NCBI GenBank assembly: GCA_046705745.1 | Contig: JBJKQC010000260.1 | Span: forward strand, 1-40,189 | Direction of reading: 5' to 3' | DNA: 40,189 nucleotides | DNA from: Dehalococcoidia bacterium | Lineage (GTDB): Bacteria; Chloroflexota; Dehalococcoidia; Lucifugimonadales; Australimonadaceae | Part shown: positions 7,840 through 30,123 of the stretch, piece by piece | How the letters are laid out: every line of letters starts with the position of its first letter | Position numbering within the stretch: position 1 is the first letter of the stretch | Made by a program: the position numbers and the translations under genes | The notes under the pieces: generated by a model | What the model was told of the DNA's origin: nothing | Seen by the model: only the letters and a program-made list of their open reading frames with translations | Database searches by the model: none

Positions 7840-7855
7840 GGACTGGAGCGCTAAC

Positions 7856-8495: not shown

Positions 8496-10550
8496 ATGTT
8501 CCCTGAAGTTGCTGCTTGGTTGATTATTTGGTTGCCACTGGCCGCGGCGGTGCTGGCCGTCGTCATCCGCCTTCTTCCGCCTAAGGCTTGGCCGTTTAGT
8601 GGCTACGTCGTGATCGTTGGTGTCGGCGCTACCTTTATCCTGAGCGTATGGGCGCTGCAGGCGACACTATCCAACGGGACAGCCAATTACAGCCCGCATC
8701 CTTGGTTCACAATCGGTAATGTTGCGGCGGGCACGGGCTTCGCAATGACCGTCGGCGTCTTCTTGGACCCGCTGACGGCGATCATGGTGGTAATCGTATC
8801 CGGCGTCTCTTTGCTCGTGCAAATCTACTCGCTCGGTTATATGCGCAATGGCGTAGTAGCAGCTTCCCCAAATGCTGATGCTCACGCCGCCACGACCATC
8901 CGGCATGACAGCAGCCAAAAGTGGGGCGATTACCCCCGTTACTTCACTTACATGGCTATCTTCACGGCAGCCATGCTGGGACTAGTGCTTTCCTATAACC
9001 TCATTGAGCTCTTTGTTTTCTGGGAACTCGTGGGCTTGACCTCCTACCTGCTGATCGGCTTTTGGTACCACCGGCCGGCTGCGGCGGCCGCCGCCAAGAA
9101 GTCGTTCATCGTCACCCGTCTTGGCGACTTTGGGTTTCTCCTCGCCATCATTTACCTATTTTTCAACCGTGCCCAGTTTTCCCAACTGGGCCTGAATCCC
9201 TTTTCGATTCCGGACATACTCAAGGCAGCCCCGGTGCTCTCGGCCGGACTCGTTACGTGGGTATCGCTGGGCATGTTCGCCGGTGCCGTGGGCAAGTCCG
9301 CCCAGTTCCCGCTAAACACCTGGCTGCCCGACGCGATGGAAGGCCCTACGCCGGTTAGCTCGTTCATCCACGCCGCGACAATGGTCGCGGCTGGTGTGTT
9401 CTTAGTGGCGCGCATGTTCCCATTGTTCCAGCACAGTGCCGCTGCATTAAACACTGTGGCCATCATCGGCGGCGCCTCAGCGTTCCTTGCCGCCGCCATG
9501 GGCCTCGTCTCCAACGACATCAAACGAGTCCTGGCCTTTTCCACCGTAAGCCAACTCGGTTACATGTTCCTGGCCCTTGGCGTCGGCGCTCCGGTGGTCG
9601 CTATCTTCCACCTCTTCAATCACGCCTTCTTCAAGTGCTTGCTCTTCCTCGGAGCCGGCAGCGTTCATCACTCCGCGAATACCTTCGACATGCGCTATAT
9701 GGGCGGCATGCGAAAGTGGATGCCCGTGACTTATGCCGCGACCCTCATCGCCGGGCTCAGCCTCGCGGGCATATTCCCGTTCTCGGGTTTCTGGAGCAAG
9801 GATGGGATCCTTGCCGCCGCTTGGTCGGGTCATGCCGCGGCGAACGTTGGCGTTTCCCAGTTCGTGTTTTGGCTGGGCCTCATAGCGGCCTTCCTGACGG
9901 CTTTCTACATCATGCGGCTGATCATCCTGACGTTTCACGGGGAGTTCCGCGGAGGCATCGACGCCATACCTCAAGATGAGCGCCTGCCGGACGAGGCGCA
10001 CGCGCATGTGCACCGCAGTGAGTCGCCGGTAGTTATGGCCTTCCCCATGGTCGTGCTAGGAGCTTTGGCGCTTGGCTCCGGGTTCTTCGCAAATCCCACC
10101 GTGAGTCTTGGCGTGATCCCTTCCTATTGGTTCTCGCACTTTCTCCAAGCGGCGCCGCCCAGTTTCAATATCGCAATCTCTAGCCTGTCCACCGGGGTAG
10201 CCTTCGTGGGACTGGGCGTTGCTTTTTACCTATATGGCGTGAAGCGGAGGATATCTGTGCCGCTGTCCAAGCCGGCCGCGCTGGTGCATCAGGTGCTGGC
10301 CCGCCGGTATTACATGGACGATTTTTACGAGGACTTTCTCGTCCGGCGTGTGGCCTACCGCGGGTTGTTCTTGGCCGCGGACTGGGTCGACCGACGGATT
10401 GTAGATGGAATTATGGACCTCATCGGATGGCTGGGCCGCAACACCGGCAGAGCCGTCGCGCAACTTCAGACAGGGCAGGTGCAGGTGTATGGCGTCGCCG
10501 TCTCTATGGGGGTGATCGTCTTGCTCATGCTTTACCTGTTCCAATGGTAG
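8496..10550 (+). CDS. nuoL: NADH-quinone oxidoreductase subunit L
   Basis: 684 aa antiporter-like subunit. Motifs: WELVGLTSYLLIGFW, GKSAQFPL..WLPDAMEGPTPVS..IHAATMV, plus a C-terminal lateral-helix region. Confidence 0.95.
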   Translation: MFPEVAAWLIIWLPLAAAVLAVVIRLLPPKAWPFSGYVVIVGVGATFILSVWALQATLSNGTANYSPHPWFTIGNVAAGTGFAMTVGVFLDPLTAIMVVIVSGVSLLVQIYSLGYMRNGVVAASPNADAHAATTIRHDSSQKWGDYPRYFTYMAIFTAAMLGLVLSYNLIELFVFWELVGLTSYLLIGFWYHRPAAAAAAKKSFIVTRLGDFGFLLAIIYLFFNRAQFSQLGLNPFSIPDILKAAPVLSAGLVTWVSLGMFAGAVGKSAQFPLNTWLPDAMEGPTPVSSFIHAATMVAAGVFLVARMFPLFQHSAAALNTVAIIGGASAFLAAAMGLVSNDIKRVLAFSTVSQLGYMFLALGVGAPVVAIFHLFNHAFFKCLLFLGAGSVHHSANTFDMRYMGGMRKWMPVTYAATLIAGLSLAGIFPFSGFWSKDGILAAAWSGHAAANVGVSQFVFWLGLIAAFLTAFYIMRLIILTFHGEFRGGIDAIPQDERLPDEAHAHVHRSESPVVMAFPMVVLGALALGSGFFANPTVSLGVIPSYWFSHFLQAAPPSFNIAISSLSTGVAFVGLGVAFYLYGVKRRISVPLSKPAALVHQVLARRYYMDDFYEDFLVRRVAYRGLFLAADWVDRRIVDGIMDLIGWLGRNTGRAVAQLQTGQVQVYGVAVSMGVIVLLMLYLFQW

Positions 10551-12056
10551 GTGGCGCACATGCTCAGCGCGATCATCTTCGTTCCCGCATTCGGCGCCTT
10601 GCTGGTACTGGCGCTTGGTAAAGACGCACGCGTTTCGAGGGCTATCGCCGTAGCCACTGCTACGGCAGAGTTGGTCCTGACGCTCATCGTGTTCGCCGTC
10701 AACCTTCACCGCGGAGTCATGGGATACACGTTTGTTGAGCGGGCGAATTGGATCTCCGCCTTCCACATTCAGTACCTGGTAGGTGTCGATGGCCTGAGTA
10801 CGCCGTTGGTGCTCCTCAATGGCCTCTTGGGGCTGGCGGCCGTCCTGGTGTCTTGGCGCGTGACGTTTCGCCCGCGCGAGTACTTCATGTGGCTGTTGAT
10901 GCTCCAGACGGCCGTCATGGGCGTGTTCATTTCGCTGGACTTCATCCTGTTCTTCTTTTTCTGGGAGCTCGAGCTCGTTCCCACGTTCTTCCTCATCGCT
11001 CGGTGGGGCACGGGACGACGTGAATACTCGGCTATGAAGTTCTTCATCTTCACGTTCTTGGGCTCCGCGTTCATGTTCGCGGCGATCATCGCGCTGTATT
11101 TCTCGTTCCCCGGCCCCGAGCGTACTTTTGACATGATCCAGCTTGCTGGCAGGCCAATGACCAACCTCATTGTTCCGGCCTCGCTGATTTTCAGCGGCTT
11201 CCTCATCGCCTTCGCGGTGAAGCTGCCCATCTTCCCGCTGCACACCTGGCTGCCGGATGCCTACACCGACTCCTCCACGGCCGTGAGCGTCATGCTGGCC
11301 GGTGTCCTGGGGAAGATGGGGGGCTATGGCCTGCTGCGCGTCAGCGCCGGCATGTTCCACGTGGAATTGGCCCGTTTTGCGCCGCTTCTAGTGGTGCTGG
11401 CCGTTATCAATGTGCTGTACGGCGCGTTCATCGTCATGCGGCAGACCGACCTCAAGCGCATGGTGGCCTACAGCAGCTTCAGCCACATGGGATTCGTGGT
11501 CCTTGGCCTTGCCTCCGTTGGCGCGGTGGCGGGACAGTTCAATGGCGTTGGCCTCAACGGCGCCGCGCTTCAGCTCTTTTCTCACGGCGTCATCAATGGG
11601 CTGTTGTTCGTGATAGTTGGCCTTATCTATGACCGGACGCACACGCGGTCAATTCCCGACATGGGTGGGCTGGCCAGGCAAATGCCCCTCATCGCCGTTG
11701 GGCTGCTCCTGGCGGGCTTTGGCGTCCTGGGACTGCCAACCACCAGCGGCTTCGTCGCTGAAATCCTGGTCTTTCTCGGCTCCTTCCCCGCCTATGCTTG
11801 GGCAACTGGCCTAGCGGTCTTTGGCGTGGTATTGGCCGCGGGGTACATGCTGTGGGTCGCGGAGCGAACGATGTTCGGTCCGTCCCTCCCGCGATGGGAA
11901 TTCCTCAGCAAAGCCGAGTACCGGGTGAACCTGGCAGAGGCCGGTGCGATGGCGCTGCTCGTCGTGCCCATCTTCGTCGTCGGTATTTACCCGAGGATCG
12001 TCACCGATCTCTTTAACCTCGGGCTCACGCCCATTATTCGGGCGTTTGGAGGCTGA
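10551..12056 (+). CDS. nuoM: NADH-quinone oxidoreductase subunit M
   Basis: 501 aa. Motifs FFFFWELELVPTFFLI, AVKLPIFPLHTWLPDAY and YSSFSHMGFV. Start is the GTG at 10551 directly after the nuoL stop, or the ATG at 10560. Confidence 0.95.
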   Translation: MAHMLSAIIFVPAFGALLVLALGKDARVSRAIAVATATAELVLTLIVFAVNLHRGVMGYTFVERANWISAFHIQYLVGVDGLSTPLVLLNGLLGLAAVLVSWRVTFRPREYFMWLLMLQTAVMGVFISLDFILFFFFWELELVPTFFLIARWGTGRREYSAMKFFIFTFLGSAFMFAAIIALYFSFPGPERTFDMIQLAGRPMTNLIVPASLIFSGFLIAFAVKLPIFPLHTWLPDAYTDSSTAVSVMLAGVLGKMGGYGLLRVSAGMFHVELARFAPLLVVLAVINVLYGAFIVMRQTDLKRMVAYSSFSHMGFVVLGLASVGAVAGQFNGVGLNGAALQLFSHGVINGLLFVIVGLIYDRTHTRSIPDMGGLARQMPLIAVGLLLAGFGVLGLPTTSGFVAEILVFLGSFPAYAWATGLAVFGVVLAAGYMLWVAERTMFGPSLPRWEFLSKAEYRVNLAEAGAMALLVVPIFVVGIYPRIVTDLFNLGLTPIIRAFGG

Positions 12057-12060
12057 ATAC

Positions 12061-13572
12061 ATGGGAGTAACGCTCCGGGATCTTTACCTCCTGTCGCCCG
12101 AGCTGGCGATGACGGCCTTGGCCGTCTTCGTCGTCTTGGTGGACCTGGTGCTCAAGCGCAAGCATCTGGTGCAGGTCATCGCCATTGCTGGACTGGTAGT
12201 GCCGGTTGCCTTGGCAGCCGTACTCTGGGCTGATGTCAGCAGCCATGGCTCCCAGGTAGCCTTCAACGGCTCGCTCATGGTGGACGAGTTCGCCGTCTTC
12301 TTCAAGTTCCTCATCATCGGAATACTAGCGTTGGTTTTGCTCGCCGGTAGCGATTATGTGGAACGCTTTCGGCCCTATCAGGCGGAATTCACCGGCCTCT
12401 TGCTGTTCTCGGGCACCGGGCTCATGTTGCTTGCCGCAGCCTCGGACTTGATCACCGTCTACCTATCGTTGGAGTTGGCCTCGTTGCCCGTGGTAGCCAT
12501 GGCCGCGTTCATCAAGACCCAGCTCCGCTCCACGGAGGCTGGGCTCAAGTACTTGGTGCTGTCCGCCGTGTCGTCGGCGGTCCTTCTGTATGGCTTCGCC
12601 TTTCTCTATGCCGCGACGGGCTCCATACGCCTCGTCTCTGCCGGTCCCGGCGGCCCGTCCATCGCCCAGATGATCCCGATGAACAACCCTGCGCTGCCAT
12701 TCGACGGATTCGCCGTCATGGTAGGCGCGGTGCTGGCCGCTGCCGGCTTCGGGTTCAAGCTCTCCATGGTGCCGTTTCAGATGTGGACCCCAGACGTCTA
12801 TGAGGGGGCTCCCACTCCCGTCGCTGCCTTCCTGGCGGTGGCCAGCAAGGCAGCCGCCTTTGCCGTCCTATTGCGCGTGTTCTACTCCGCTCTCGGTCCC
12901 GTGAGTCCGGACTGGTCCATAATGTTCGCTGCCCTCGCCGCTGTAACCATGACTGTCGGCAATGTGGTCGCCATTGCTCAGACCAACGTGAAGCGGCTGC
13001 TGGGGTACAGCACCATCGCTCACGCCGGTTACATCCTCGTCGGCGTTGCCGCTATCGCTGCCCGTAGCCAGGAGGCTGCGGACGCCTCCCTTGGCATCAC
13101 CAGCGTCCTGTTTTACCTCGGCGGCTACGCGGTCATGAACCTAGCGGCCTTTTTTGCCGTGTTGGCTATCACCAACCGGACCGGGGACGAGCGCATTGCG
13201 GGGCTTGCCGGCATGGGAAGGCGGGCGCCGCTGCTGGCGTTCGTGTTCGCCTTCGCGTTGGTCTCTCTAACGGGAATACCGCCCACGGTCGGGTTCATGG
13301 GTAAGTTGTTCCTTTTTAACGCTGCCATCAACTCCGGCCTCACGTGGTTGGCCGTTCTCGGCCTGGTCAACAGCGCCGTCTCCGCGTACTACTATCTTGG
13401 GATCGTTCGCATCATGTACCTCAAAGAGCCGGATGACCCAAAGCCGGTGGGCGCCGCAATCCCGGCCCGAGTGGCTTTGGCCCTCACCGCCGTGGGCGTC
13501 CTAGTTCTCGGCCTCTGGCCCAGCGGACTCTTTGCAGTCGCTCACAGCGCGGCCGCGGGCCTCCTACCCTAG
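12061..13572 (+). CDS. nuoN: NADH-quinone oxidoreductase subunit N
   Basis: ATG at 12061 with GGAGG 8 nt upstream (MGVTLRDLYLLSPELAM...). Motifs KLSMVPFQMWTPDVYEGAPTPV and LLGYSTIAHAGY. The track ORF from 11944 overlaps nuoM. Confidence 0.9.
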   Translation: MGVTLRDLYLLSPELAMTALAVFVVLVDLVLKRKHLVQVIAIAGLVVPVALAAVLWADVSSHGSQVAFNGSLMVDEFAVFFKFLIIGILALVLLAGSDYVERFRPYQAEFTGLLLFSGTGLMLLAAASDLITVYLSLELASLPVVAMAAFIKTQLRSTEAGLKYLVLSAVSSAVLLYGFAFLYAATGSIRLVSAGPGGPSIAQMIPMNNPALPFDGFAVMVGAVLAAAGFGFKLSMVPFQMWTPDVYEGAPTPVAAFLAVASKAAAFAVLLRVFYSALGPVSPDWSIMFAALAAVTMTVGNVVAIAQTNVKRLLGYSTIAHAGYILVGVAAIAARSQEAADASLGITSVLFYLGGYAVMNLAAFFAVLAITNRTGDERIAGLAGMGRRAPLLAFVFAFALVSLTGIPPTVGFMGKLFLFNAAINSGLTWLAVLGLVNSAVSAYYYLGIVRIMYLKEPDDPKPVGAAIPARVALALTAVGVLVLGLWPSGLFAVAHSAAAGLLP

Positions 13573-13750
13573 CTTCTTCATTTGCCGCTTCCCCTCCGTG
13601 CACGCTGCCCCTCAGGGTCTTTCGTTTGTCATGCAAGCCCTTGCCCGGCGCCCGGTCTCGCATCGAACGCCGTGGCTAGCCGGACATACATCGAAAGCCC
13701 CTGGGCCTCTATCTCACCCTCTCACCTTTTCCTTCGGCCACCTTCCTTCC

Positions 13751-13775
13751 GCAATCTGGCGTCCCATGTTATAAT
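13751..13775 (+). promoter_or_regulatory. Candidate sigma-70 promoter with extended -10 (TGTTATAAT) in a local AT-rich patch
   Basis: TATAAT at 13770-13775 is preceded by TG at 13767-13768. A weak -35-like TTCCGC lies 17 nt upstream. GAAC-N4-GTAC (13777-13788) follows immediately. No canonical gene lies downstream. Confidence 0.3.
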
Positions 13776-13908
13776 AGAACAAATGTACTTTCACGGATAC
13801 CCCACCACCTACCACTCACCATCGCAGACTTCCCGGCTCGCAACTCGCCAGCTAGTGCGCTTCAAAAACAAATTTTGCGCCAGTGCTGCGAGTCGATTCG
13901 CCAGTCTG

Positions 13909-14315
13909 CCAGGCCGTGGCCACGCGGAACCCGTTTCGCCGCTGCGCTTTGCTGCGGGTGATTTTCGGGTTTGCTTCGGCCTCGCTTCGCCTCTGCTGCG
14001 GCCTTGCTGCGGCTTGCTTCGCTTGCCTGTCCGGCCCTCACTGCTCGCCGCTTACTGCTTACTGCTCACCGCTTACCGCTTACCGTTCACTGCGGCGTGC
14101 CGGAGAAAATCTACGCGAATGTTGCACCCCACAATACCCCGTACGCCAGGCCGTGGCCCGCTGGAGAGGATTTCGGTGTCGCGCGCGTTGCGGGTTATTT
14201 TCGGGTTTGTTGCGGGTTTGTTGCGGGTTGTTGCGGGTGATTTGCGGGTTGTTGCGGCTAGTGTTGCGGGCCGGGAACCGATCCAGCCCTCGGAAGCCGG
14301 GGCGCAACACCAGGC
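13909..14315. repeat. ~237-bp direct duplication, each copy carrying an array of eight ~11-bp phased T/G-rich units (consensus ~YTTGYTGCGG)
   Basis: GCCAGGCCGTGGCC occurs at 13909 and 14146. ATTTTCGGGTTTG occurs at 13962 and 14198. The C of the unit-terminal CG(G) falls at 13956, 13967, 13978, 13989, 14000, 14011, 14021, 14033 in copy 1 and at 14192, 14203, 14214, 14225, 14235, 14246, 14256, 14268 in copy 2. Copy 1 also has CGCTTAC heptamer repeats at 14049-14096. Confidence 0.7.
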
Positions 14316-14375
14316 CCCGGCCTGGCCCGCCGTCCGGCCGCTCTGCCCCGTAGCACTTGGCGGTGACACCCATGA

Positions 14376-14460
14376 CTGAGAATCGAAAGGCCCTGGGCAT
14401 CCGCCAATAGAGTGTTTGACAAGCTCGCGGAAGCGGTAGTAGCCTTCCGGCGTCTTACCT
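14376..14460 (+). pseudogene. Possible relic of the C-terminal tail of an IS5-family (IS427-like) DDE transposase
   Basis: The frame reads LRIERPWASANRVFDKLAEAVVAFRRLT. DKLAE...AF resembles the conserved ATRYDKLAxxFxAF tail of IS427-group transposases. No upstream DDE body or inverted repeats were found. Confidence 0.2.
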
Positions 14461-17387: not shown

Positions 17388-19478
17388 ATGCTTCACGCCA
17401 TTGGGCAGTCGGTAGGCTATCTGGGCAACCCAGTCTATTGGGCGGCCGTGCTCATCGCAGTGGCGTTGGCCGTTCACGGTCTCATTCCCGGCGTCGGGTC
17501 GCTGACCATCCAGGCGCTGGCGATCCCGTTCATCCTTTTTCAGATCAAGGACCCCGCCATCGGCCTGGTCATGTTGGCGACCCTGGGCGGTACCAACAAT
17601 ACCCTGGACACCATCCCCTCCGTCCTGGTGGGGTTGCCGGGGGCGGCAACGCAGGTGACGTTCCTGGAAGGCCACCAGTTGGCGCGCCGAGGGCAGGCCG
17701 CCTTCACCATGGGGGCCATCTACGGCATATCCGCCATTGGCTGTGTGATTGGGGCCGTCACCTTGGCCGTAGTGATCCCCATCATCAAGCCGTTCATCCT
17801 CAAGTTCGGCTTTGCGGAAATCGCGGTCATGGCGCTGTTCGGCGTGGCGATGGTCTCGGTATTGAGCCACGGGGCCATGATCAAGGGCCTCGCCGGAGGC
17901 CTTATCGGGATGTTCCTGGGCAGTGTAGGCATGGAGACGCTGACCGGCATCCAGCGTTACACCTTCAGCCAGGACGCCCTAGTGACGGGGCTTCCATTGG
18001 TGGCGACGGTCCTGGGAGTCTTCGCTCTTCCCGAGCTGATAGACCTGACTGTCAGCCGGACAGCCGTCGCGCCTGAAGGGGCGTCGGTATCCATACGAGA
18101 GGTCTGGCGGGGGGCCGGTTACTCGCTGACGAAGAAGTGGGGGCTGGCGGTCCGCCAGTCCCTGTTTGGCGTGCTCATGGGCGCCATCCCGGGAATTGGG
18201 TCCGGTGTCGTGGACTGGCTGGCCTATGCCTTCGGCATCGCCTGGGCCAAGGATAGATCGCAGTTCGGCAAAGGGGCCCTGGACGGAGTGCTGTTTGCCG
18301 AGGCCGCCCAGAATTCCAAAGAGGGCGGGCAGGCGATTCCGACCCTGGCGCTGGGCGTGCCGGGCGGCACCGGATGGATCATGGTGATTGTGGGGATGCT
18401 TGCTTACGGCATTGCGCCGGGGCCGCAGATGGTGGGCCAGTACGCCTATATCACCATGCTGATGGTGTATACGCTGGCGATAGGGAACCTGGCGGTGGTG
18501 CTCATCGGTATGGTGGCGACGGGGCCGCTCGTGCGTTTGACGCGGCTCCCGTACCCGGCCATTGCTGGGGTCGTGATACCCCTGGCGCTGGTCGCTTCCT
18601 TCATCAATATGGAGGACTGGCTCGCGATTCCCATCGCGCTGGTGATGACGGTCCTTGGCCTATTCATGAAAGCATACGGGTGGCCCCGGCCGCCCCTGGT
18701 GCTTGGGTTCATTCTGGGGCCGATCATCGAGGAGAACCTGTTCACGGCGCTTTCGGTCTATGGAGTGGTGGGGACTATCACCCGGCCGGTGACCATCGTC
18801 ATGTTCATCTTGGTCGTTGCGTTCACCTTCGGCCTGAACCGGGCCATGCGCTCGTCCTCGAAGTCCGTTTCCGAGCTGACGGCGGAAGGGTCTGCCGGAG
18901 AGTTGCCTGCCGTAGGCGGGGCGGCGCCGACGGATTCGCCTGAAATGGTTGGGCCTTCAGGCGCTGTCTCTCGGGTGTTTTCGGGCTTCACGTGGCGCCG
19001 CCGGAACTTCTTCACGCTCTTTCTCATTGTTGGGTTTGGCCTCGCCGCCTGGCAGGCCGCGGGGTTCCCGTCGTTCAAGGCGGAATTCTTTCCCCTGGCT
19101 GCGGGCATTGGCGTGATGGCGCTGGCGGCCGTCCAGCTCATCATGGACAGCCGGAGCAAGGGCGGCAAGCAGGGCGACATCATGGATCTGGCGCTGCGCA
19201 GCGCGGGAGTTGCCGGGTGGCGACAGGGCGCGCTGCTCGTTTTGGGCCTGTTCGCCGCCTTTGTGTTCATATCGTACCTGTTCGGGCTGCAGTACGGGGC
19301 CATCGCCTTTGGATTCCTGGCGCCGATGCTCCTGCTGGAAGGCCGCCGGCGCTGGGTGGCCTCGGTCATTGCCGGGGCGGTAGTCGCGGCGTTCGTATTC
19401 GGCGTCGGGGACAAGCTCATGGTGATGATTTGGCCTCAGCCGGTGTTGGGCCACATGCTGTTCGGGCTGAATAACTAA
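17388..19478 (+). CDS. tctA: TTT transporter large permease TctA fused to a C-terminal TctB-like 4-TM module
   Basis: 696 aa. The N-terminal ~500 aa fit the TctA/DUF112 pattern (GLIPG.G....A...P..., FAEAAQNSKEGGQAIPTLALGVPG). A polar linker at about aa 505-540 is followed by four hydrophobic segments (FTLFLIVGFGLAAW..., FFPLAAGIGVMALAAV...) like TctB. Confidence 0.85.
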   Translation: MLHAIGQSVGYLGNPVYWAAVLIAVALAVHGLIPGVGSLTIQALAIPFILFQIKDPAIGLVMLATLGGTNNTLDTIPSVLVGLPGAATQVTFLEGHQLARRGQAAFTMGAIYGISAIGCVIGAVTLAVVIPIIKPFILKFGFAEIAVMALFGVAMVSVLSHGAMIKGLAGGLIGMFLGSVGMETLTGIQRYTFSQDALVTGLPLVATVLGVFALPELIDLTVSRTAVAPEGASVSIREVWRGAGYSLTKKWGLAVRQSLFGVLMGAIPGIGSGVVDWLAYAFGIAWAKDRSQFGKGALDGVLFAEAAQNSKEGGQAIPTLALGVPGGTGWIMVIVGMLAYGIAPGPQMVGQYAYITMLMVYTLAIGNLAVVLIGMVATGPLVRLTRLPYPAIAGVVIPLALVASFINMEDWLAIPIALVMTVLGLFMKAYGWPRPPLVLGFILGPIIEENLFTALSVYGVVGTITRPVTIVMFILVVAFTFGLNRAMRSSSKSVSELTAEGSAGELPAVGGAAPTDSPEMVGPSGAVSRVFSGFTWRRRNFFTLFLIVGFGLAAWQAAGFPSFKAEFFPLAAGIGVMALAAVQLIMDSRSKGGKQGDIMDLALRSAGVAGWRQGALLVLGLFAAFVFISYLFGLQYGAIAFGFLAPMLLLEGRRRWVASVIAGAVVAAFVFGVGDKLMVMIWPQPVLGHMLFGLNN

Positions 19479-22884: not shown

Positions 22885-22989
22885 GGGCTTCCCGTTGGCA
22901 ATCCATGTGGACCGCTCGGACTATTCCTGTGCCTATCCTCCCTTGCCCGCTAGGCGGTGCTCCGCGACAATGCCCCCGTGATTTCGCCT

Positions 22990-23565
22990 ATGCAGACCCG
23001 CTTTGGTGAAGTGGTGGAGGCGTCGCTGGAACGTCTGGTGGGGCAGTGCCATCGTCTCTACGATGCGCCGCCCCTGGGCAGACTCGTACGCGCTGGCGAT
23101 ACCGTTTACGGCGTGGTGCAAGATGTCGCCACGACGGCCTTGGACCCCACGCGTCGGGTGATCGCGCGAGGCGCGGATGCAGCTTCCGAGGATGAAATAT
23201 ACCGGGAACACCCTCAGCTCGAGCGCCTACTCCGTACGGACGTGGCCCTGGCCGTCGTAGGCCATCGCGAGGGGGGCGAGGTATGCCAGTACCTCCCGCC
23301 GTTGCCGCCGCGCATTCACACCTTCCTGCACCTCTGCCCGCCGGAAGAGATCCGCGCTTTCATGACCAAGTTCGACTTTCTGCCCCTGCTGGTACGGGTA
23401 GGCCAGCCCGGCGCCGATGACCTTGTTGCCGCAGTCCTGCGTCAGGCGTCCATGGCCTTCGACGCGCCGCACGATTTCCTGATCTCCGGCGGCCGCGCCC
23501 TCGCCGCATTGCTGTCGCGCGACACCGTCCGGCTGAACGCCGTCCTACGGAGGCTGCCGCTCTGA
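22990..23565 (+). CDS. HAS-barrel-like domain protein without an ATPase domain, paralogous to the N-terminus of the downstream HerA-like gene
   Basis: ATG at 22990 (the track ORF begins at GTG 22957). FGEVVEASLERLVGQC...LGRLVRAGDTVYGVVQDV and LAVVGHREGGEVCQYLPPLPPRIHTFLHLCPPEEIRAF parallel LGVVVGGSLSRGLDV...VGTFVTVLGSAHRYFGIITDL and ILAIGIGENNPQPARSLPGHFARVYRATNEDVQAVF in the next gene. Its stop lies 2 nt before the next ATG. Confidence 0.5.
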   Translation: MQTRFGEVVEASLERLVGQCHRLYDAPPLGRLVRAGDTVYGVVQDVATTALDPTRRVIARGADAASEDEIYREHPQLERLLRTDVALAVVGHREGGEVCQYLPPLPPRIHTFLHLCPPEEIRAFMTKFDFLPLLVRVGQPGADDLVAAVLRQASMAFDAPHDFLISGGRALAALLSRDTVRLNAVLRRLPL

Positions 23566-23567
23566 GC

Positions 23568-25178
23568 ATGGACTGGTTGGATGATGCTGTTGGGCCCTTG
23601 GGCGTCGTCGTTGGCGGCTCACTGTCGCGCGGGCTGGACGTCCGGCTGTTGTCGCACACGGCGGTCGAGGACGCCAAGGTCGGCACCTTCGTCACCGTCC
23701 TCGGCTCGGCCCACCGCTACTTCGGCATTATCACGGACCTGGTATTGGAGAGCAGCGACTCCCGCCTGGCGGCCGCTATGGACGCCGCCAACGATGCCGT
23801 GGCCCGCGTCCTGTCCGGCACCGCCGCCTACTCCCTGGCGCGTGTCACACCCATCCTGGCCATCGGAATTGGGGAAAATAACCCTCAGCCGGCCCGCTCC
23901 TTGCCCGGCCACTTCGCGCGCGTGTATCGCGCGACCAACGAGGATGTCCAGGCGGTCTTTGGCGGCGAGGATGCCCGCCATATCTATGTTGGCAGCCCGC
24001 TGGATATGGAGGACACCCGCGTCTGCTTGGACCTAGAAGAGCTGGTCAAGCGGTCCAACGGTGTCTTCGGCAAGAGCGGCACCGGCAAGAGCTTCCTCAC
24101 CCGTATTCTGCTGGCGGGCATCCTCCAGCGTGGCGTGGCCACCAACCTCGTGTTCGACATGCATAGCGAGTATGGGTGGCAAGGCACGCACGAGTCCGGC
24201 TACGCAGCCAAGGGTCTGAAGCAGCTCTTCCCCAGCCGTGTAGCGGTGTTCACCTTGGACGAGCAGTCCTCCCGCCGCCGCGGGGTCTCCACCGACTTCG
24301 TCGCTCGCATCGGCCTCAACGAGATCGAGCCGGACGACATCACCATTCTGGCGCCGACCCTCGGTATCACGGACCTGGGGGTGCAGGCCTGCTACACGCT
24401 GGAGCGCCACTTCGGTGACGACTGGATGCAGTCCTTTCTGGACGTGCCATCGGCCGAGGTGGCGACTTTGGCGGACTCCATCGGCGAGCACGCCGGTACG
24501 TTGGACGCGCTGCGGCGACGGCTGCGGCCTATCGAGCGGCTGGAGTTCACAGTGCACCGGACGCCGGCAGGGCAGGGGACCGTTCAGAAGGTCCTGGAGT
24601 ACTTGAAAGACGGCCGTCACGTGGTGCTGGAGTTCGGCCGCCACGGCGACAACCTCACCGCATACCTTCTGGTAGCGAACCTCCTGACCCGGCGCATCCA
24701 CGCCGAGTACCGGCGGCGCACCGAGCAGGCCCTGGCCGACAACACCAAGCAGCCCGGTCCCCTCGTTATCACCATCGAGGAGGCCCACCGCTTCCTGGCC
24801 CCAGGAATTGCTGGTCACACCATATTCGGCACCATTGCCAGAGAGATGCGCAAGTACCACGTCACCTTGCTCGTGGTGGACCAACGACCCTCCGGTATCG
24901 ACGAAGAGGTGCTCAGCCAGATTGGAACGCGCATCGTCTGCCAGCTCGACAACGAGCGCGACGTGGACGCCGTGCTTACCGGCGCGCCTGGCTCGCGAGA
25001 GCTTAAGGCCGTCCTTTCGCGCTTGGAGGCGCACCAGCAGTCGCTTATGTTCGGCCACGCCTTGCCCATGCCTGTTGTCGTCCGTACTCGCGACTACGAT
25101 GACGCTTTTTATGGGGACATGACGTTGCCTGGCTATGGGACAGCAGCAACGCGGGATAAGCAGGACCTGTTTAGGTGA
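23568..25178 (+). CDS. HerA/DUF87-type P-loop ATPase (FtsK-HerA superfamily) with an N-terminal HAS barrel
   Basis: 536 aa. Walker A is GVFGKSGTGKSFL and Walker B is LVITIEEAHRFL. REMRKYHVTLLVVDQRPSGIDEEVLSQIGTRIVCQLDNERDVDAVL is the HerA C-terminal signature. Confidence 0.85.
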   Translation: MDWLDDAVGPLGVVVGGSLSRGLDVRLLSHTAVEDAKVGTFVTVLGSAHRYFGIITDLVLESSDSRLAAAMDAANDAVARVLSGTAAYSLARVTPILAIGIGENNPQPARSLPGHFARVYRATNEDVQAVFGGEDARHIYVGSPLDMEDTRVCLDLEELVKRSNGVFGKSGTGKSFLTRILLAGILQRGVATNLVFDMHSEYGWQGTHESGYAAKGLKQLFPSRVAVFTLDEQSSRRRGVSTDFVARIGLNEIEPDDITILAPTLGITDLGVQACYTLERHFGDDWMQSFLDVPSAEVATLADSIGEHAGTLDALRRRLRPIERLEFTVHRTPAGQGTVQKVLEYLKDGRHVVLEFGRHGDNLTAYLLVANLLTRRIHAEYRRRTEQALADNTKQPGPLVITIEEAHRFLAPGIAGHTIFGTIAREMRKYHVTLLVVDQRPSGIDEEVLSQIGTRIVCQLDNERDVDAVLTGAPGSRELKAVLSRLEAHQQSLMFGHALPMPVVVRTRDYDDAFYGDMTLPGYGTAATRDKQDLFR

Positions 25179-25481: not shown

Positions 25482-26798
25482 ATGCTCGATGAAAAGCAAG
25501 GCGCGCAGGTACAGACCGTGGAGCGACCAGACGGCCATGCGGCACCCATGCCGTACCTGGGCCGCAGCGTGCGGGTCGTCGGCGATTGGCGGTCTGTCGA
25601 TGCCTCGCAGACGCCGCACGAAAAGAACAAGCGAGGCGAGCTGGGCCAAGCCCTCAAAAATTGGTACTTCAATCGGGCCTCGCGGGAGCCCCTCAGCCGT
25701 GTGGCCACCGTCAATAGCTCGGCCGATAGCCACAATGTCTTGGAGCACCTGGTCAGCCAGCTCCCCAAGGGTAAGGTCAACCCCACTAGAACTGAGGTCA
25801 AGGACCCTGCAATCATGGCCCGCCACATCAAGCGAGTGGCCAAGTTCCTTGGTGCATCCCACGTGGGCATCATGCGGGTCCAGCCCCAGTTCCTCTACGA
25901 GGGTGGTCGCTATCCGGACGATGGCTCCGGCGGTGCGGGATCCATCGACCACAAGGCCGTGGCGGAAGAGACAGCCCGCCGCTACCCCTACGCCATCGCT
26001 TGTGCCCTTGCCTGGGACTATGACATGGGCCGCGCGCACCGCCATCGCATCGGCGACGCGGCGTACCACTTTAGCGCCGAGGCGCTCCGCGAGATCTACG
26101 CCAACCTGGCTGCGTACATTCGCGAGATGGGATATTCCGTTGTGACCCGTATGACGACCCCTATGCCCGTGGCGCTGGCCGCTGGCATCGGCGAGCTGGG
26201 CCGCCTTGGCATGCTCATCACCGAGAAGTACGGCGCCCGTATACACTTGGGCGACCCTATCCTCACGGACATGCCGCTGGCGGTGGACGCGCCCATCGAC
26301 ATCGGCGTGGAGGACTTCTGCAAGGTCTGTAGGAAGTGCGCCAATACCTGCCCGACCAACAGCATCACCACCGAGGGCAAGTCTGTCGTCAACGGCGTCG
26401 AAAAGTACAAGATCAACTGGCAGACCTGCTACCGGCTCCGCCCCCATGTCATGGACTACTGGGACACCTGCCTCACCTGCGTGACCGTCTGTCCCTATAC
26501 CAAGCCCAACACCTGGTGGCACACCTGGGCCGTGCATGCCATGAAATGGACGCCCATACCGCTTAGGTCTTTTACGGCGAGGGGGCTGAAATGGATCGAC
26601 GATACTTTCTGGGGCAAGGTTCCACGCAAGCGCGTGCGCTGGATGAGCTTCGACACGGGCCGCCTCAAATTGCCAGACGGCACGATTATGCCGGAGAAGC
26701 CGGACATGGGCTACTACTACCCGCTGAAGGAGAACTCGCGCCGGTTCGACTTACTCAAGGAGAAGCTTAAGACAAAGAGCGACGCTCCGAGCCGGTAA
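25482..26798 (+). CDS. Reductive dehalogenase-family (RdhA-like) corrinoid/Fe-S protein, cytoplasmic type (no Tat signal)
   Basis: ATG at 25482 with GGAG 7 nt upstream. GELGRLGMLITEKYGARIHLGDPILTDMPL..D.PID.GVEDFCKVCRKCANTCPTNSI ... W..C......YWDTCLTCVTVCPYTK mirrors the PceA-type core plus two Fe-S motifs. There is no RRxFLK twin-arginine leader and no rdhB-like anchor gene nearby. Confidence 0.8.
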   Translation: MLDEKQGAQVQTVERPDGHAAPMPYLGRSVRVVGDWRSVDASQTPHEKNKRGELGQALKNWYFNRASREPLSRVATVNSSADSHNVLEHLVSQLPKGKVNPTRTEVKDPAIMARHIKRVAKFLGASHVGIMRVQPQFLYEGGRYPDDGSGGAGSIDHKAVAEETARRYPYAIACALAWDYDMGRAHRHRIGDAAYHFSAEALREIYANLAAYIREMGYSVVTRMTTPMPVALAAGIGELGRLGMLITEKYGARIHLGDPILTDMPLAVDAPIDIGVEDFCKVCRKCANTCPTNSITTEGKSVVNGVEKYKINWQTCYRLRPHVMDYWDTCLTCVTVCPYTKPNTWWHTWAVHAMKWTPIPLRSFTARGLKWIDDTFWGKVPRKRVRWMSFDTGRLKLPDGTIMPEKPDMGYYYPLKENSRRFDLLKEKLKTKSDAPSR

Positions 26799-26802
26799 AG
26801 GT

Positions 26803-26837
26803 CTACCCCTTTCTCCATTGCCGGCAGAAGGTCAGGG
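26803..26837. repeat. GC-rich hairpin repeat, same family as 4186-4217
   Basis: CTACCCCTTTCTCCATTGCCGGCAGAAGGTCAGGG shares CTACCC-TTCTCC ... AGAAGG-CAGGG with the nuoC-nuoD copy. Confidence 0.4.
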
Positions 26838-26934
26838 CCTGTCCTGATCGGAGCCGAAGGAATGAGGAGGAGACTTCATTATTCTGCGAGGAGTTCGCCT
26901 TACTCCATGCCAATTCCTTCGACAGAGGGAGGAT

Positions 26935-27549
26935 ATGAGTTTGCTTCAGCGATTGCCTTTTCGCCGTGAGAGCGACCCCTACTGGGACGGGTTTGTTAAC
27001 CGCCCGTTAGCGGATCCTGCCCATGACCTGGCCACTGCCATACGTAATGCCCACGAGGGCAAGGTGTTCCCCGTTGAGAGCGATGTCCCGCCCCCTGACC
27101 GCATGGCTCGTGATCTGGCCGAGTTGGCCCGCTTCTTAGGGGCTGCGCGCTTCGGCGTCGCGGCCACGAGCGCGGCTTACCTTCGACTTCGGCCTTCAGA
27201 GGACGGAGGCAAGGTGGAAGACGAAGAAGCCTTGGCAGCTGCGCACCCGTTCCTCTTGGTCTGCGTCGTTCCTGCCCAGTACGACCCGGCAGAAGCCCAA
27301 GGCATGGCCGGGCGTGCCGTAGCCCAGAAGTCCGCTAGTGTTTGCTTTACTCTCGCCGCCTATATCCGCGAGCTCGGCTACCGGGGCATGGTGACGCCTA
27401 TCGATTCGTGTGCTGCCGCGGTTGCGGCGGGCCTAGGGAACTTGGCACGGGACGGACGCTTGTCGGTGCCCGGCTACGGGTCGAAAGTCTACGTGGGCGA
27501 TGGCGTCCTGACCGACCTCCCGCTGGTCCCAGGGTGCCCGGCGATATGA
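26935..27549 (+). CDS. RdhA-like core-domain paralogue lacking the C-terminal ferredoxin (2x[4Fe-4S]) domain
   Basis: GGGAGG RBS. 204 aa. DRMARDLAELARFLGAARFGVA and AAYIRELGYRGMV...AVAAGLGNLARDGRLSVPGYGSKVYVGDGVLTDLPLVPG align with PAIMARHIKRVAKFLGASHVGI and AAYIREMGYSVVT...ALAAGIGELGRLGMLITEKYGARIHLGDPILTDMPLAVD of the upstream gene. The ORF stops exactly where that gene's Fe-S motifs begin. Confidence 0.6.
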   Translation: MSLLQRLPFRRESDPYWDGFVNRPLADPAHDLATAIRNAHEGKVFPVESDVPPPDRMARDLAELARFLGAARFGVAATSAAYLRLRPSEDGGKVEDEEALAAAHPFLLVCVVPAQYDPAEAQGMAGRAVAQKSASVCFTLAAYIRELGYRGMVTPIDSCAAAVAAGLGNLARDGRLSVPGYGSKVYVGDGVLTDLPLVPGCPAI

Positions 27550-27703
27550 CCTCTCCTTCAGCGTTGTCTCCGAAAGCTCTGCGTAGAGCGGAGGGCAAGA
27601 GACCCGTTCATCCTGAGCGCGGAGCAGTCGAAGGACGAACGAGCGTTGGTCTAGCGTCAAGGTTTGCTCCTCATTCAGACGGTCACGAAAGTGGTGTGTG
27701 CTC

Positions 27704-28393
27704 ATGACCACGAAACATGCCTTTGCAACCTACGTCATCACGGAGCCGTGTGTCGATGTCAAGGACGGCACATGCGTCGAGGTCTGCCCTGTCGATTGCA
27801 TCGAGACTGCATCTAGTGAGCCTCAGTACTACATCAATCCGGACCTGTGCATCGCATGCGAGCAGTGCGTGCTCGTTTGCCCGGTAGACGCCATCTTCCT
27901 CGAAAACGAAGTGCCGGAGAAGTGGCGAGGCTATGTCGAGAAAAACGCCGCCTTCTTCCAGCAGGCTGCGGCTGCGGTCCCTCCTGTAGGCAATGAGGAG
28001 GCGGAAGCCCTGCTCACCGGCGCGCGACAACGAGCTTTGGAGCTTGGCCTCTCGGTCAGCATCGCCGTCCTAGATAAGCAGGGCCAACTGGTGGGCCAAG
28101 AGTCTGTGGGCGCGCCGGACGCGGAGCGGCAAGTGCGCGCCCAGAACAAGGCCTATACCTCCGTCATGCTGGAGCGCGCCACTCTGCACGTGAACGAGCG
28201 GATGGTCCGCGGCGCGCTCTCCTCTGCCGACCAGGGCCGCATGGTGCTGGAGGCCGGAGGACTGCCCTTCGGCAGGCCCTACATTGTTGGCGCCATAGGC
28301 GTCGCTGGCGGTACGTGTGACCAAGACCAAGAGTGTGGGCTCGCCGCTCTCGCAAGCTGGAACCGCTGGGAAGCCGAGCGCGCGGCCGTGTAG
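27704..28393 (+). CDS. 7Fe-type ferredoxin fused to a GlcG/HbpS/PduO-C (DUF336) domain
   Basis: N-terminus: YVITEPCVDVKDGTCVEVCPVDCI ... CIACEQCVLVCPVDAIF, the FdxA-type [3Fe-4S][4Fe-4S] pattern. C-terminus: ALELGLSVSIAVLDKQGQLVG...KAYTS...GGLPF...IVGAIGVAGGTCDQDQECGLAAL, the DUF336 pattern. The ATG at 27704 is preferred over the GTG at 27698. Confidence 0.8.
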   Translation: MTTKHAFATYVITEPCVDVKDGTCVEVCPVDCIETASSEPQYYINPDLCIACEQCVLVCPVDAIFLENEVPEKWRGYVEKNAAFFQQAAAAVPPVGNEEAEALLTGARQRALELGLSVSIAVLDKQGQLVGQESVGAPDAERQVRAQNKAYTSVMLERATLHVNERMVRGALSSADQGRMVLEAGGLPFGRPYIVGAIGVAGGTCDQDQECGLAALASWNRWEAERAAV

Positions 28394-28525: not shown

Positions 28526-29638
28526 TTACCCCCACACCTTGCGGGCGGTGTCCACCACCAGTTCCAGCTTGCGCCATTGCTGCTCCTCTGTCAGCATATT
28601 GCCGGCCGCCATGGACGCGAAGCCGCACTGCGGGCTCAGGGCCAAGCGTTCCAAGGGCACGTACTTGCTGGCCTCGTCTATTCGTCGCAGCAAGGCGTCT
28701 TGCGATTCCAGATCGCCGGTCTTGCTGCTGATGAGACCAAGCACCACCATCTTGTCCTTGGGCATGTGCTGCAGTGGCTCGAACGTGCCGGCTCGCTCCG
28801 TGTCGTACTCCAGCAGCCACCGGTCTACGTTCAAGCTATTGAACACCTTCTCCGCGATGGGCCCGTACCCGCCCCGGGCATACCACATGCTTTGGTTGTT
28901 CCCTCGGCAAATATGGAAGGCGACGGTCACACCGGGTCGCCGCAACCCTTCAAGGCAGGAGTTGTCTGCCGCGATGGCCTCGTCCAGCGCTTGCTCCGGG
29001 TCGTAGCCGAGGCTCTGCAGGTGTTCGCGCCACTTGGGGTCCACGTAGTAGCTGTACCGCGGCGCGTCGATCTGCACGTAGGGAACGCCGTCGTCTTCCA
29101 CCAACGCCTTCAGCTCCGTCTTCACGATATCCGAGATCGCCCATAGCAGGTCGGACCGCGTTTTGTAATACTTGTCGGTGAGACCTTGCTGGTAGCTGAC
29201 TGTCGGAAATTGGTTGGCGCTCGGGACGGTCATCTTGAATGGCCCCGGCGCATGCTCCTTGAGAAAGGCGGTTTGAACGTCGGTAAATCGGCCGTGCGGC
29301 TTGAGTGGCCCGGCCACGATCCGGAGCGCGCCGCCCTCCTTAGGTTGCTCCGTGCCACCTTGCCATATTCGTGCCACAGCCGGTGTCTGGGAGTAAATGA
29401 AGCCTTCCACTGCCTCGGCGATATCGTTTTGGAACCCACTGCGTCGGAATTCTCCGTCGGAGAATACCTCGATGCCAATCTCTTTCTCGCGCTCCAGGGC
29501 ATCGAGGATGGCGTTGTCTTCAACCTCCCGGAGCTGGTCACGGTCTATCCGGCCCTGCTGGAAAGCCTCTCGCGTGTCCTTCACTTTCTGCGGGCGCAGC
29601 AAGCTGCCCACTTGGTCGGCCCTGTATGCTTCTGCCAT
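28526..29638 (-). CDS. Cobalamin-independent methionine synthase (MetE C-terminal, Meth_synt_2) family protein
   Basis: ATG at 29638 with GGAGG 7 nt upstream (MAEAYRADQVGSLLRP...). Motifs G..VFSDGEFRR, YVQIDAP, HICRGN and LSPQCGF (zinc ligands His/Cys/Cys) are typical of single-domain MetE-like (YxjG/H-type) enzymes. Confidence 0.8.
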   Translation of the reverse strand: MAEAYRADQVGSLLRPQKVKDTREAFQQGRIDRDQLREVEDNAILDALEREKEIGIEVFSDGEFRRSGFQNDIAEAVEGFIYSQTPAVARIWQGGTEQPKEGGALRIVAGPLKPHGRFTDVQTAFLKEHAPGPFKMTVPSANQFPTVSYQQGLTDKYYKTRSDLLWAISDIVKTELKALVEDDGVPYVQIDAPRYSYYVDPKWREHLQSLGYDPEQALDEAIAADNSCLEGLRRPGVTVAFHICRGNNQSMWYARGGYGPIAEKVFNSLNVDRWLLEYDTERAGTFEPLQHMPKDKMVVLGLISSKTGDLESQDALLRRIDEASKYVPLERLALSPQCGFASMAAGNMLTEEQQWRKLELVVDTARKVWG

Positions 29639-29688
29639 TGCTTTGCCTCCTAGCCAATCATGGCACATCATGTTCTGGAGACGCACGT

Positions 29689-30123
29689 ATGCCGTCAATT
29701 AGCTTCAGCGGAACCATAGCACGCCCGGTGCACGAAGTGTTCGCTCTGGTGACGGATCCTGCGACGCACCCACGGTGGCAAAAGAATGTGATTGAGAGTT
29801 CCATCGTCTCGGAGACGGCCGAACACGTCGGCTCCGTCGTTCGAGAGGTGCGGCAGTTCATGGGCAGGCGGGTGGAAACGACCTATCGTGTCACGGTCTT
29901 TGAGGCGGACCGCCTGTTTAGGACGGAGAGCGTTTCCGGTCCGGTGCCTGGCGAGGTTGGAGCTGACTTCGAAGCCCTGGAAGGTGGCAAGACGCAGTTG
30001 ACGCTCCATGCGACCTTTCACCTAGGCGGAGCGTTCAAACTGGCTGGACCCATCGCTAACCGCATGATGCGTGGCGAGATGGAGGATAACTTCAAGGCGC
30101 TCAAGGCCCTGATGGAAGCATGA
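29689..30123 (+). CDS. SRPBCC (START/polyketide cyclase-like) family protein
   Basis: ATG at 29689. SISFSGTIARPVHEVFALVTDPATHPRWQ is the canonical Polyketide_cyc2 N-terminus. 144 aa. Confidence 0.7.
   Translation: MPSISFSGTIARPVHEVFALVTDPATHPRWQKNVIESSIVSETAEHVGSVVREVRQFMGRRVETTYRVTVFEADRLFRTESVSGPVPGEVGADFEALEGGKTQLTLHATFHLGGAFKLAGPIANRMMRGEMEDNFKALKALMEA

Follow-up and report, generated by a model that had tools for sequence, protein, structure and literature searches.

A conserved three-gene locus of Dehalococcoidia encoding an RdhA-like enzyme, a degenerate copy of its core and a ferredoxin-DUF336 fusion

We analyzed a 40,189-nucleotide stretch of DNA (below, the window) from a Dehalococcoidia bacterium of the phylum Chloroflexota (assembly GCA_046705745.1, contig JBJKQC010000260.1, positions 1 to 40,189 of the forward strand). 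Three consecutive genes on its plus strand encode, respectively, a protein similar to the reductive dehalogenase RdhA, a shorter paralog of the core of that protein, and a ferredoxin fused to a DUF336 domain.

Gene 1 (25482-26798, +; 438 residues from an ATG, with an in-frame TTG at 25476) codes for a predicted RdhA-like class III cobalamin/[4Fe-4S] enzyme, in which a family-specific N-terminal segment (residues 1-60) is followed by a corrinoid-type core (61-271), an Fe-S domain (272-345) and a conserved C-terminal extension (346-438). The first Fe-S motif, C280-x2-C283-x2-C286-x3-C290-P291, is encoded at 26319-26354 (+), and the second, C316 ... C330-x2-C333-x3-C337-P338, with R320 inside it, at 26427-26495 (+). 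A spacer of 136 base pairs (bp) at 26799-26934, which measures 4 bp in most relatives, separates it from gene 2 (26935-27549, +; 204 residues), the paralog of the gene 1 core. Another spacer, of 154 bp (27550-27703), leads to gene 3 (27704-28393, +; 229 residues from an ATG, with a GTG at 27698), whose product combines a 7Fe-type ferredoxin domain (residues 9-90, encoded at 27728-27973, +; C16-x7-C24-x3-C28-P ... C49-x2-C52-x2-C55-x3-C59-P) with a DUF336/HbpS-like domain (residues 97-216, encoded at 27992-28351, +; PF03928). Pfam and NCBIfam searches found no flavin, NAD or [2Fe-2S] domain in any of the three proteins.

These three open reading frames (ORFs), their domains and boundaries, and the two gaps had been described in an earlier reading of the DNA from its letters only (the sequence-only reading), and the ORF list and hidden Markov model searches reproduce all of them, with E-values well outside what chance would give. 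Neither spacer contains a plus-strand terminator-like site, an inverted repeat or an Rfam match, and the whole window has zero Rfam matches to a cobalamin riboswitch or any other RNA element. No remnant of an Fe-S domain is visible 3' of gene 2 in the other-frame ORF (27342-27707) that spans the second spacer.

A conserved three-gene module

We scanned one genome per species, 185,579 species in all, with an alignment of gene 2, and annotated all ORFs in the resulting 49 loci by phmmer. The loci that have a true gene 2 ortholog and enough flanking sequence (L001-L031 and L034) contain, on one strand, a gene 1-like gene (426-458 residues), a gene 2-like gene (167-210 residues) and a ferredoxin-DUF336 fusion (205-235 residues); the rest of the 49 are ordinary full-length RdhA-like genes. 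The usual gaps in the trio loci are 4 bp from the stop of gene 1 to the start of gene 2, and then about 16 bp; most loci are tightly packed. The spacing between genes 2 and 3 in relatives is about 4-30 bp, most commonly 15 bp, and exceeds 100 bp in a few.

The trio is found again when distant homologs of gene 3 (42-46% identity) or of gene 1 (52-62% identity) serve as the starting points, and the same three genes occur in the same order in every related locus with enough flank, about 40 loci reached separately from genes 1, 2 and 3. The linkage of gene 3 to RdhA-like genes, on which the sequence-only reading relied, thus holds wherever it was checked, gene 3 adjoining both a gene 1-like and a gene 2-like gene. 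In a bin of Bryobacteraceae (Acidobacteriota), genes 1 and 2 are visible and the contig ends after gene 2. An intact gene 2 with an unchanged end point occurs in about 40 loci, which represent at least two phyla and reach down to 35-40% identity. The family of gene 1 comprises 539 clusters at E <= 1e-20, and that of the gene 3 fusion 672 clusters at E <= 1e-10. Genes 1, 2 and 3 have median ratios of nonsynonymous to synonymous substitution rates (dN/dS, Nei-Gojobori method, NG86) of 0.155, 0.28 and 0.20, respectively, over 292 ortholog pairs; gene 2 is under constraint, though looser than genes 1 and 3. Gene content, co-occurrence, gene order and purifying selection on all three genes show that the trio is a conserved module, shared by marine Chloroflexota and related bacteria, which we take to be one operon.

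There are some variations on this arrangement. Two loci (L061 and L062, 2591-6757) have tandem gene 1 paralogs of 445 and 439 residues, followed by one gene 2-like gene and one ferredoxin-DUF336 fusion; a Rieske/LigXa_C oxygenase gene adjoins this cluster. A Chloroflexota bin (L027) has an extra stand-alone DUF336 ORF of 132 residues at 3167-3565, just upstream of the trio, and in a Dehalococcoidia bin from Lake Baikal (L028, 3487-4936) the gene 1 ortholog is split into parts of 380 and 81 residues, whether by frameshift, by decay to a pseudogene or through an error of assembly. In a Deltaproteobacteria bin (L033, 4800-6289), a full-length RdhA-like gene precedes an ORF for an FdxA-type ferredoxin, with no gene 2-like gene and no DUF336, an arrangement which suggests that the ferredoxin partnership is perhaps older or wider than the trio.

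The genes flanking the trio differ between lineages. Rieske/LigXa oxygenases, HpaB, Amidohydro_2, SDR and CoA-transferase genes recur loosely in the flanks of the relatives, and this recurrence is too weak for substrate assignment.

The three proteins

Judged by sequence, the product of gene 1 plainly falls among the class III B12/Fe-S enzymes, in their RdhA branch. It displays the RdhA architecture, i.e., a nitroreductase-like, corrinoid-type core followed by a two-cluster ferredoxin domain, and the eight Fe-S cysteines, arranged in the RdhA pattern, are invariant in family alignments of 17 and 28 members. The 4Fe-4S dicluster models of Pfam match residues 280-339. The TIGR02486 model ('reductive dehalogenase') scores 155.7 bits, a near miss of its curated cut-off of 160.35, so that the protein is a member of the superfamily without certified TIGR02486 membership. 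Among solved structures, the sequence itself matches NpRdhA (1e-28), PceA (6e-27) and QueG (4e-9), and the family profile matches PceA at 4e-37 (residues 135-401) and NpRdhA at 7e-31. When the structural model of gene 1 was compared to known structures by Foldseek, the top 36 matches were all RdhA structures, followed by QueG and then MMACHC. Database labels on the relatives of gene 1 vary between ferredoxin, reductive dehalogenase, QueG and 4Fe-4S protein.

The sequence-only reading had assigned to gene 1 a corrinoid core with both Fe-S motifs, and a cytoplasmic location without an RdhB anchor, and both assignments agree with the data. The first 50 residues have no twin-arginine (RR) motif of a Tat leader, there is no transmembrane segment (maximal 19-residue hydropathy, 1.39), and between 24.6 and 29 kb there is no RdhB-like hydrophobic ORF, the frame of gene 3 itself being the only hydrophobic one. 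Structure-profile alignments indicate that gene 1 holds a single core, with no fused vestigial duplicate at the N-terminus.

Several features are peculiar to this family. The motifs PHEKNKRGELG..NWY and AHRHxIGDxxYHF are gene 1's own and are invariant, and a C-terminal extension of 90 residues is likewise conserved. Residues H186-R187-H188, D192, Y195-H196 and R320 are invariant, and H255 nearly so. R320 is the alignment partner of NpRdhA R552. At other positions known from the dehalogenases, different residues are seen: the conserved proton-donor tyrosine (Y246 in PceA, Y426 in NpRdhA) aligns with Ala199; PceA R305, one of the residues ringing the cobalt, aligns with His255; and NpRdhA K488 aligns with Leu256, next to that same His255. 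The invariant Tyr195-His196 pair lies four residues, or one helical turn, before the PceA Y246 position, in the same predicted helix, and Tyr195 may take the catalytic position. In the structural model, the scaffold has a predicted local distance difference test (pLDDT) score above 85, while the most conserved loops (39-84, 187-193 and 310-329) score below 50; these loops may be shaped by cofactors or partner subunits.

Gene 2 has zero Pfam matches; its TIGR02486 match is at 1e-12. The protein can be aligned with residues 81-271 of gene 1 at 32% identity (E = 2e-24), and hhalign places residues 61-271 of gene 1 onto residues 7-202 of gene 2 with E = 1.4e-36 and a probability of 99.9%. It ends at the equivalent of gene 1 residue 273 or so, seven residues before C280, the first Fe-S cysteine; the alignment with the core and the stop at the Fe-S boundary are as the sequence-only reading had them. 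Gene 2 lacks the N-terminal segment of gene 1 (with PHEKNKRGELG..NWY), the Fe-S domain and the 90-residue C-terminal extension. Its family consists of 73 clusters of about 150-215 residues at 34-59% identity, mostly from Chloroflexota/Dehalococcoidia metagenome bins, all of which stop no more than about 10 residues from a TDLPL motif; this motif and AAYIRELGY are near-invariant. The AlphaFold2 model (pLDDT 89.2; predicted template modeling score, pTM, 0.84) has the RdhA-core fold, and its nearest neighbors are RdhA cores (the RDH complex 8Q4H, PceA and NpRdhA); QueG and, after it, nitroreductases are more distant. Neither the top 50 Foldseek matches of this model nor the sequence matches of gene 2 to solved structures include MMACHC.

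The joint alignment of the shared region has 58 columns that are invariant in the gene 1 family. Gene 2 keeps 15 of the 58, where 'kept' means presence in at least 80% of gene 2 sequences, and loses 26. The kept columns are chiefly glycine, proline and the hydrophobic scaffold, together with the AAYIRELGY helix and the TDLPL strand. Those lost include H186, R187, H188, D192, Y195, H196, E238, R241, E248 and H255; 18 of the 26 are polar or aromatic, and nearly all of the polar active-site candidates are gone. A large subclade of gene 2 also deletes 12 residues that correspond to the invariant loop of gene 1 written as GExGRxGxxIxE or GxxGRxGxLIT. With the RdhA-core fold retained and catalytic and conserved polar residues lost, gene 2 has the marks of a vestigial RdhA core. 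Gene 2 is, to judge from dN/dS, alignment and model, functional yet non-catalytic. Class III enzymes have no defined cobalamin-binding motif (PMC4646009), and the product of gene 2 may still bind a corrinoid.

To trace the origin of gene 2, we built a simple distance (neighbor-joining) tree of the core regions from 203 columns. Gene 1 and gene 2 are each monophyletic with 100% bootstrap, they form an exclusive joint clade with 75%, and the internal branching of the two clades matches. This topology points to one old duplication of the gene 1 core, followed by co-divergence. A shared origin of gene 2 with the vestigial domain of NpRdhA was considered and rejected, as that grouping obtains 0% bootstrap, versus 75% for gene 1 with gene 2. 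Searched with the profile of gene 2, NpRdhA is hit twice: its vestigial domain (59-220) scores 28.9 bits and its active core (345-503) 35.7 bits.

Gene 3 is a fusion of two domains, of the kinds named by the sequence-only reading. The best matches of residues 9-90 among solved structures are the 7Fe ferredoxins 1BC6, 1BQX, 2V2K and 1H98 (E of 7e-27); the match to FdxA_Actino (NF045480) is 98.7 bits against a cut-off of 125, i.e., the protein is no FdxA equivalog. The seven 7Fe ligand cysteines (C16, C24, C28-P29, C49, C52, C55 and C59-P60, two of them with the proline that follows), as well as C32, are invariant in 24 members, and this ligand pattern predicts one [3Fe-4S] and one [4Fe-4S] cluster. 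Residues 97-216 match PF03928 with 74.5 bits (cut-off 25; E = 1e-20) over profile positions 3-127 of 128, and the solved matches are 2A2L (OrfY), 5CX7 (PduO's C-terminal domain, PduOC), 6BWS (EfgA) and 3FPV (HbpS). Members of the DUF336 family bind heme and aquo-cobalamin, and form dimers or octamers (PMC4923194). There is no invariant or near-invariant histidine in this domain among the 24 members of the gene 3 family, and the 5CX7 match starts at residue 101, a glutamate, opposite PduOC residue 18. The PduOC heme ligand His18 has no conserved counterpart in gene 3, and a tetrapyrrole may be bound via other residues; a corrinoid-handling role of the domain is possible.

Possible mode of action and alternative explanations

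We propose that the trio encodes a multi-subunit cytoplasmic cobalamin/Fe-S reductase of the RdhA/QueG superfamily (class III), with gene 1 as the catalytic subunit, gene 2 as its pseudo-dimer partner and gene 3 as the electron donor; we regard this proposal as about evenly poised between right and wrong. Gene 1 would be the sole catalytic subunit, having the corrinoid-type core, two [4Fe-4S] sites and invariant polar residues near the expected active site. Gene 2 would be an ancient duplicate of the gene 1 core that kept the scaffold, lost the catalytic residues and became a separate subunit, and would most likely bind gene 1 as a pseudo-dimer partner. It would then be the separately encoded counterpart of two things, the second monomer of the PceA homodimer and the fused vestigial core of NpRdhA/BhbA. 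In the catabolic RdhAs, a vestigial duplicate of the cobalamin core, itself unable to bind cobalamin, mimics the monomer-monomer interface of the respiratory RdhA dimer (PMC10463259). Electrons would leave the 7Fe ferredoxin of gene 3 for the outer [4Fe-4S] cluster of gene 1 and travel on through the inner cluster to cobalt. In class III enzymes the two clusters are close to the surface (PMC4646009), and either could therefore take electrons from another protein. The DUF336 domain of gene 3 may be an oligomerization or docking module, which possibly also binds a tetrapyrrole or corrinoid. We infer the heterodimer of genes 1 and 2, the electron path through gene 3, the corrinoid content and the reaction from sequence and from precedent. 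Aromatic organohalides may be reductively dehalogenated, or the reaction may be a different reduction.

Several observations weigh against this proposal. Gene 1 falls slightly under the TIGR02486 cut-off, and its dehalogenase chemistry is not assured, because Ala199 aligns with the catalytic tyrosine and PceA R305 is replaced by histidine. The vestigial domain of NpRdhA is N-terminal to the active core, whereas here the degenerate copy is downstream, and the two form no joint clade; for both reasons the likeness to the NpRdhA arrangement would be convergent. The DUF336 domain of gene 3 has no conserved histidine to match the PduOC heme ligand. The 136- and 154-bp gaps in the window are unusually long, and co-transcription at this locus is suggested by the lack of terminator-like sites in them, which is its sole basis. 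Finally, gene 2 might still bind a corrinoid.

This last point bears on the explanation that the trio combines an enzyme with its own maturation apparatus: gene 2 would be a corrinoid chaperone similar to CblC/MMACHC that takes up, processes or holds the corrinoid, and gene 3, whose DUF336 domain may bind cobalamin, would reduce Co(III)/Co(II) in order to load or reactivate gene 1. We consider this rather unlikely. CblC, which has no ferredoxin domain, binds cobalamin base-off like RdhA and QueG, and the lack of a B12-binding motif in class III enzymes means that gene 2 cannot be declared B12-free from its sequence (PMC4646009); HbpS and PduOC bind aquo-cobalamin in vitro, PduO is part of the cobalamin-recycling machinery (PMC4923194), and the purifying selection on gene 2 fits a chaperone as well. 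However, the 50 best structural matches to the gene 2 model do not include MMACHC, and RdhA cores are the nearest; in many gene 2 orthologs a loop invariant in gene 1 is shorter by 12 residues, and the polar residues are lost; the precedent of the degenerate core in NpRdhA is a B12-free domain (PMC10463259); and the DUF336 domain of gene 3 offers no conserved histidine. A further argument against it, but a weak one, is that chaperones are rarely found in strict one-to-one synteny and translational coupling with an enzyme over such divergence.

The sequence-only reading had suggested a split enzyme, in which gene 2 binds the corrinoid and performs catalysis, the ferredoxin of gene 3 replaces the missing Fe-S domain in trans, and gene 1 is an independent paralog. 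The part of it that stands is that genes 2 and 3 are real, conserved, under selection and syntenic: gene 2 does terminate at the Fe-S boundary, and gene 3 is always next after it, usually within about 16 bp. Catalysis by gene 2 fares worse, and we find the split enzyme very unlikely. Nearly all polar residues fixed in gene 1 are gone from gene 2, the candidate Tyr/His pair among them, and gene 2 cannot supply a counterpart of R320 (NpRdhA R552), because this residue sits in the very Fe-S domain that gene 2 is missing. The 7Fe FdxA-type module differs in architecture from that domain; gene 1 is present in every locus checked; and two gene 1 paralogs can share one gene 2 and one gene 3, as in L061 and L062. 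Nor did the Rosetta-stone test suggested for this explanation, a search for fusions of the Fe-S-less core with the ferredoxin or DUF336, produce such a protein. An exhaustive profile search of 1.84 billion representatives yielded 770 gene 2 relatives. Eight long or atypical proteins from the best 150 were inspected, and none of them truly fuses a gene 2-like core to a ferredoxin or DUF336. One apparent gene 2-ferredoxin fusion, P0228, was rejected as a frameshifted read-through. Two others, P0217 and P0265, are NpRdhA-like fusions of a degenerate core with a complete RdhA. As the degenerate cores in the inspected fusions are joined to a complete RdhA, gene 1 is indicated as the partner of gene 2. 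Another protein of this set, P0249 (685 residues), carries two complete RdhA-like units one after the other, both having a core and an Fe-S domain, which is another way to a covalent 'dimer'.

The idea that gene 2 is a functionless, decaying remnant of a tandem duplication can draw on its being shorter than gene 1, on its dN/dS of 0.28, compared to 0.155 and 0.20 in the neighbors, and on the lack of a Pfam match. We regard it as hardly tenable: some 40 loci from at least two phyla have the ORF intact and with the same end, at identities as low as 35-40%, the dN/dS is well under 1, AAYIRELGY and TDLPL are near-invariant, and the fold is predicted with confidence. A pseudogene is effectively refuted by the conserved motifs, the intact syntenic orthologs and the dN/dS value, and gene 2 is a real gene, as the sequence-only reading took it to be.

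The proposed multi-subunit reductase can be extended into a more specific picture, which we consider improbable when all of its parts are taken jointly. The trio would be an unrecognized heterotrimeric branch of the class III cobalamin enzymes, spread widely through aerobic Dehalococcoidia/SAR202, both marine and sponge-associated. Its pseudo-dimer partner may have had an origin apart from that of the vestigial domain in NpRdhA and have remained a subunit of its own; the ferredoxin-DUF336 protein may be at once the physiological electron donor and a built-in module for corrinoid/tetrapyrrole reactivation; the altered site (the Tyr195-His196 pair, the loop with His186-Arg-His188, and a histidine, His255, where PceA has Arg305) may carry out a non-dehalogenating reduction; and the substrates may be aromatic or alicyclic compounds of dissolved organic matter.

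Relation to known systems and genomic neighborhood

The closest precedent is the NpRdhA type (NpRdhA, BhbA and JtRdhA; 4RAS, 6ZXU; PMC10463259). Like the trio, these enzymes are cytoplasmic, with no Tat leader and no RdhB, combine a corrinoid-type core with two [4Fe-4S] sites, set a degenerate copy beside the active core (a copy that in NpRdhA takes the place of the second PceA monomer), and depend on an electron-transfer module, external or attached; the equivalent of NpRdhA R552 is retained in gene 1. In contrast to the trio, their degenerate core is a fused N-terminal domain and not a separate downstream gene of independent origin, and the self-sufficient forms have a fused reductase domain of the NAD-binding/Fe-S type in place of a 7Fe ferredoxin-DUF336 protein. 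The catalytic tyrosine and lysine of NpRdhA align with Ala199 and Leu256 of gene 1, which in turn has PHEKNKRGELG, AHRHxIGDxxYHF and the 90-residue extension of its own.

'Simplified cytosolic' RdhA-like proteins that lack the vestigial domain have been described from Chloroflexota and Desulfobacterota, with no mention of partner genes (PMC12219181). They resemble gene 1 in being short and cytoplasmic, in having no fused vestigial domain and in coming from the same phyla, and surveys would probably bin gene 1 with them. They have, however, been treated as single proteins (PMC12219181), whereas gene 1 has a co-conserved vestigial-type core and a ferredoxin-DUF336 protein directly downstream.

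The respiratory RdhA/RdhB systems (PceA, 4UQU; RDH complex, 8Q4H) provide the best profile match of gene 1 (PceA, 4e-37) and its best structural matches, have the same Fe-S pattern, and form a homodimeric core-core interface which gene 2 may mimic. Their Tat signal, RdhB and membrane link are absent from the window, and gene 1 does not conserve Y246 and R305 at the positions aligned with them. QueG (5D08, 5D6S) shares the class III architecture, some databases call relatives of gene 1 by its name, and the invariant D-Y-H motif of its active site (PMC4646009) recalls the invariant Y195-H196 pair. Yet the similarity is much weaker: gene 1 reaches 52 bits with TIGR00276, whose cut-off is 200, and is without a HEAT-repeat tRNA-binding domain. 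QueG, unlike the trio, is monomeric with no partner subunits. CblC/MMACHC formally has the same domain content as gene 2, a nitroreductase-like B12-binding core and no ferredoxin domain, but without detectable sequence similarity, gene 2 being plainly an RdhA core of recent type. The C-terminal half of gene 3 clearly belongs to the same fold family (PF03928) as the PduO C-terminal domain, HbpS, OrfY/GlcG and EfgA, some members of which bind heme and aquo-cobalamin, and one of which is attached to a cobalamin adenosyltransferase. Gene 3 differs from these proteins in the fusion of DUF336 to a 7Fe ferredoxin, in its tie to an RdhA-like enzyme and in having no conserved counterpart of His18.

The suspicion of the sequence-only reading that this composition had not been described is borne out so far as open-access literature goes: we found no such paper there, and full-text searches for 'reductive dehalogenase' together with DUF336 or GlcG returned nothing, subscription-only papers being outside their scope. 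Within that literature the subunit composition appears to be undescribed. The enzyme superfamily and the principle of an active core with a dead copy are known; the genetic and subunit arrangement and the partner protein appear to be new. A separate degenerate core suggests that pairing of an active with an inactive core evolved more than once, and the trio is a natural split system for asking why a dimer-like partner is needed by such enzymes. For cytoplasmic RdhA-type and other class III B12 enzymes, little is known of the physiological redox partners (PMC4646009); hundreds of sequence clusters tie the ferredoxin fusion genetically to the enzyme, which makes it a directly testable candidate. 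The link to the trio may also give DUF336 a defined biochemical context. Surveys count the relatives of gene 1 as 'reductive dehalogenase', 'QueG' or 'ferredoxin', and go on to infer organohalide cycling in the ocean. In view of the altered active-site residues and the extra subunits, such inferences need experimental backing.

The genes that flank the trio in the window (a HerA-like ATPase, a short MetE, a Leu/Phe dehydrogenase and MgtE) are unrelated to it, and the context is that of an ordinary chromosome, with complex I genes, SecDF and MgtE nearby. Downstream, a 390-residue short protein of the MetE type (Meth_synt_2; 28526-29698, -) is convergent on gene 3; it scores 275 bits with NF005085, where the cut-off is 313. 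The 'core-MetE' of Dehalococcoides uses methylcobalamin (PMC7005905), and the short MetE might be another link to B12, but it is not conserved as a neighbor in the related loci. Immediately upstream of gene 1 (22957-25178, +), a 202-residue protein without a family match is followed by a 536-residue HerA-like DUF87 ATPase, which matches both repair-type and anti-phage HerA models, in each case weakly. Genes of respiratory complex I occupy 4269-14379 (+), including NuoD-like and NuoH-like genes and three Proton_antipo_M subunits; the strongly negative AT skew at 9-14 kb (-0.25 to -0.32) is explained by the complex I membrane proteins encoded there. At 17388-19478 (+), a single ORF of 696 residues joins the TctA and TctB domains of the tripartite tricarboxylate transporter.

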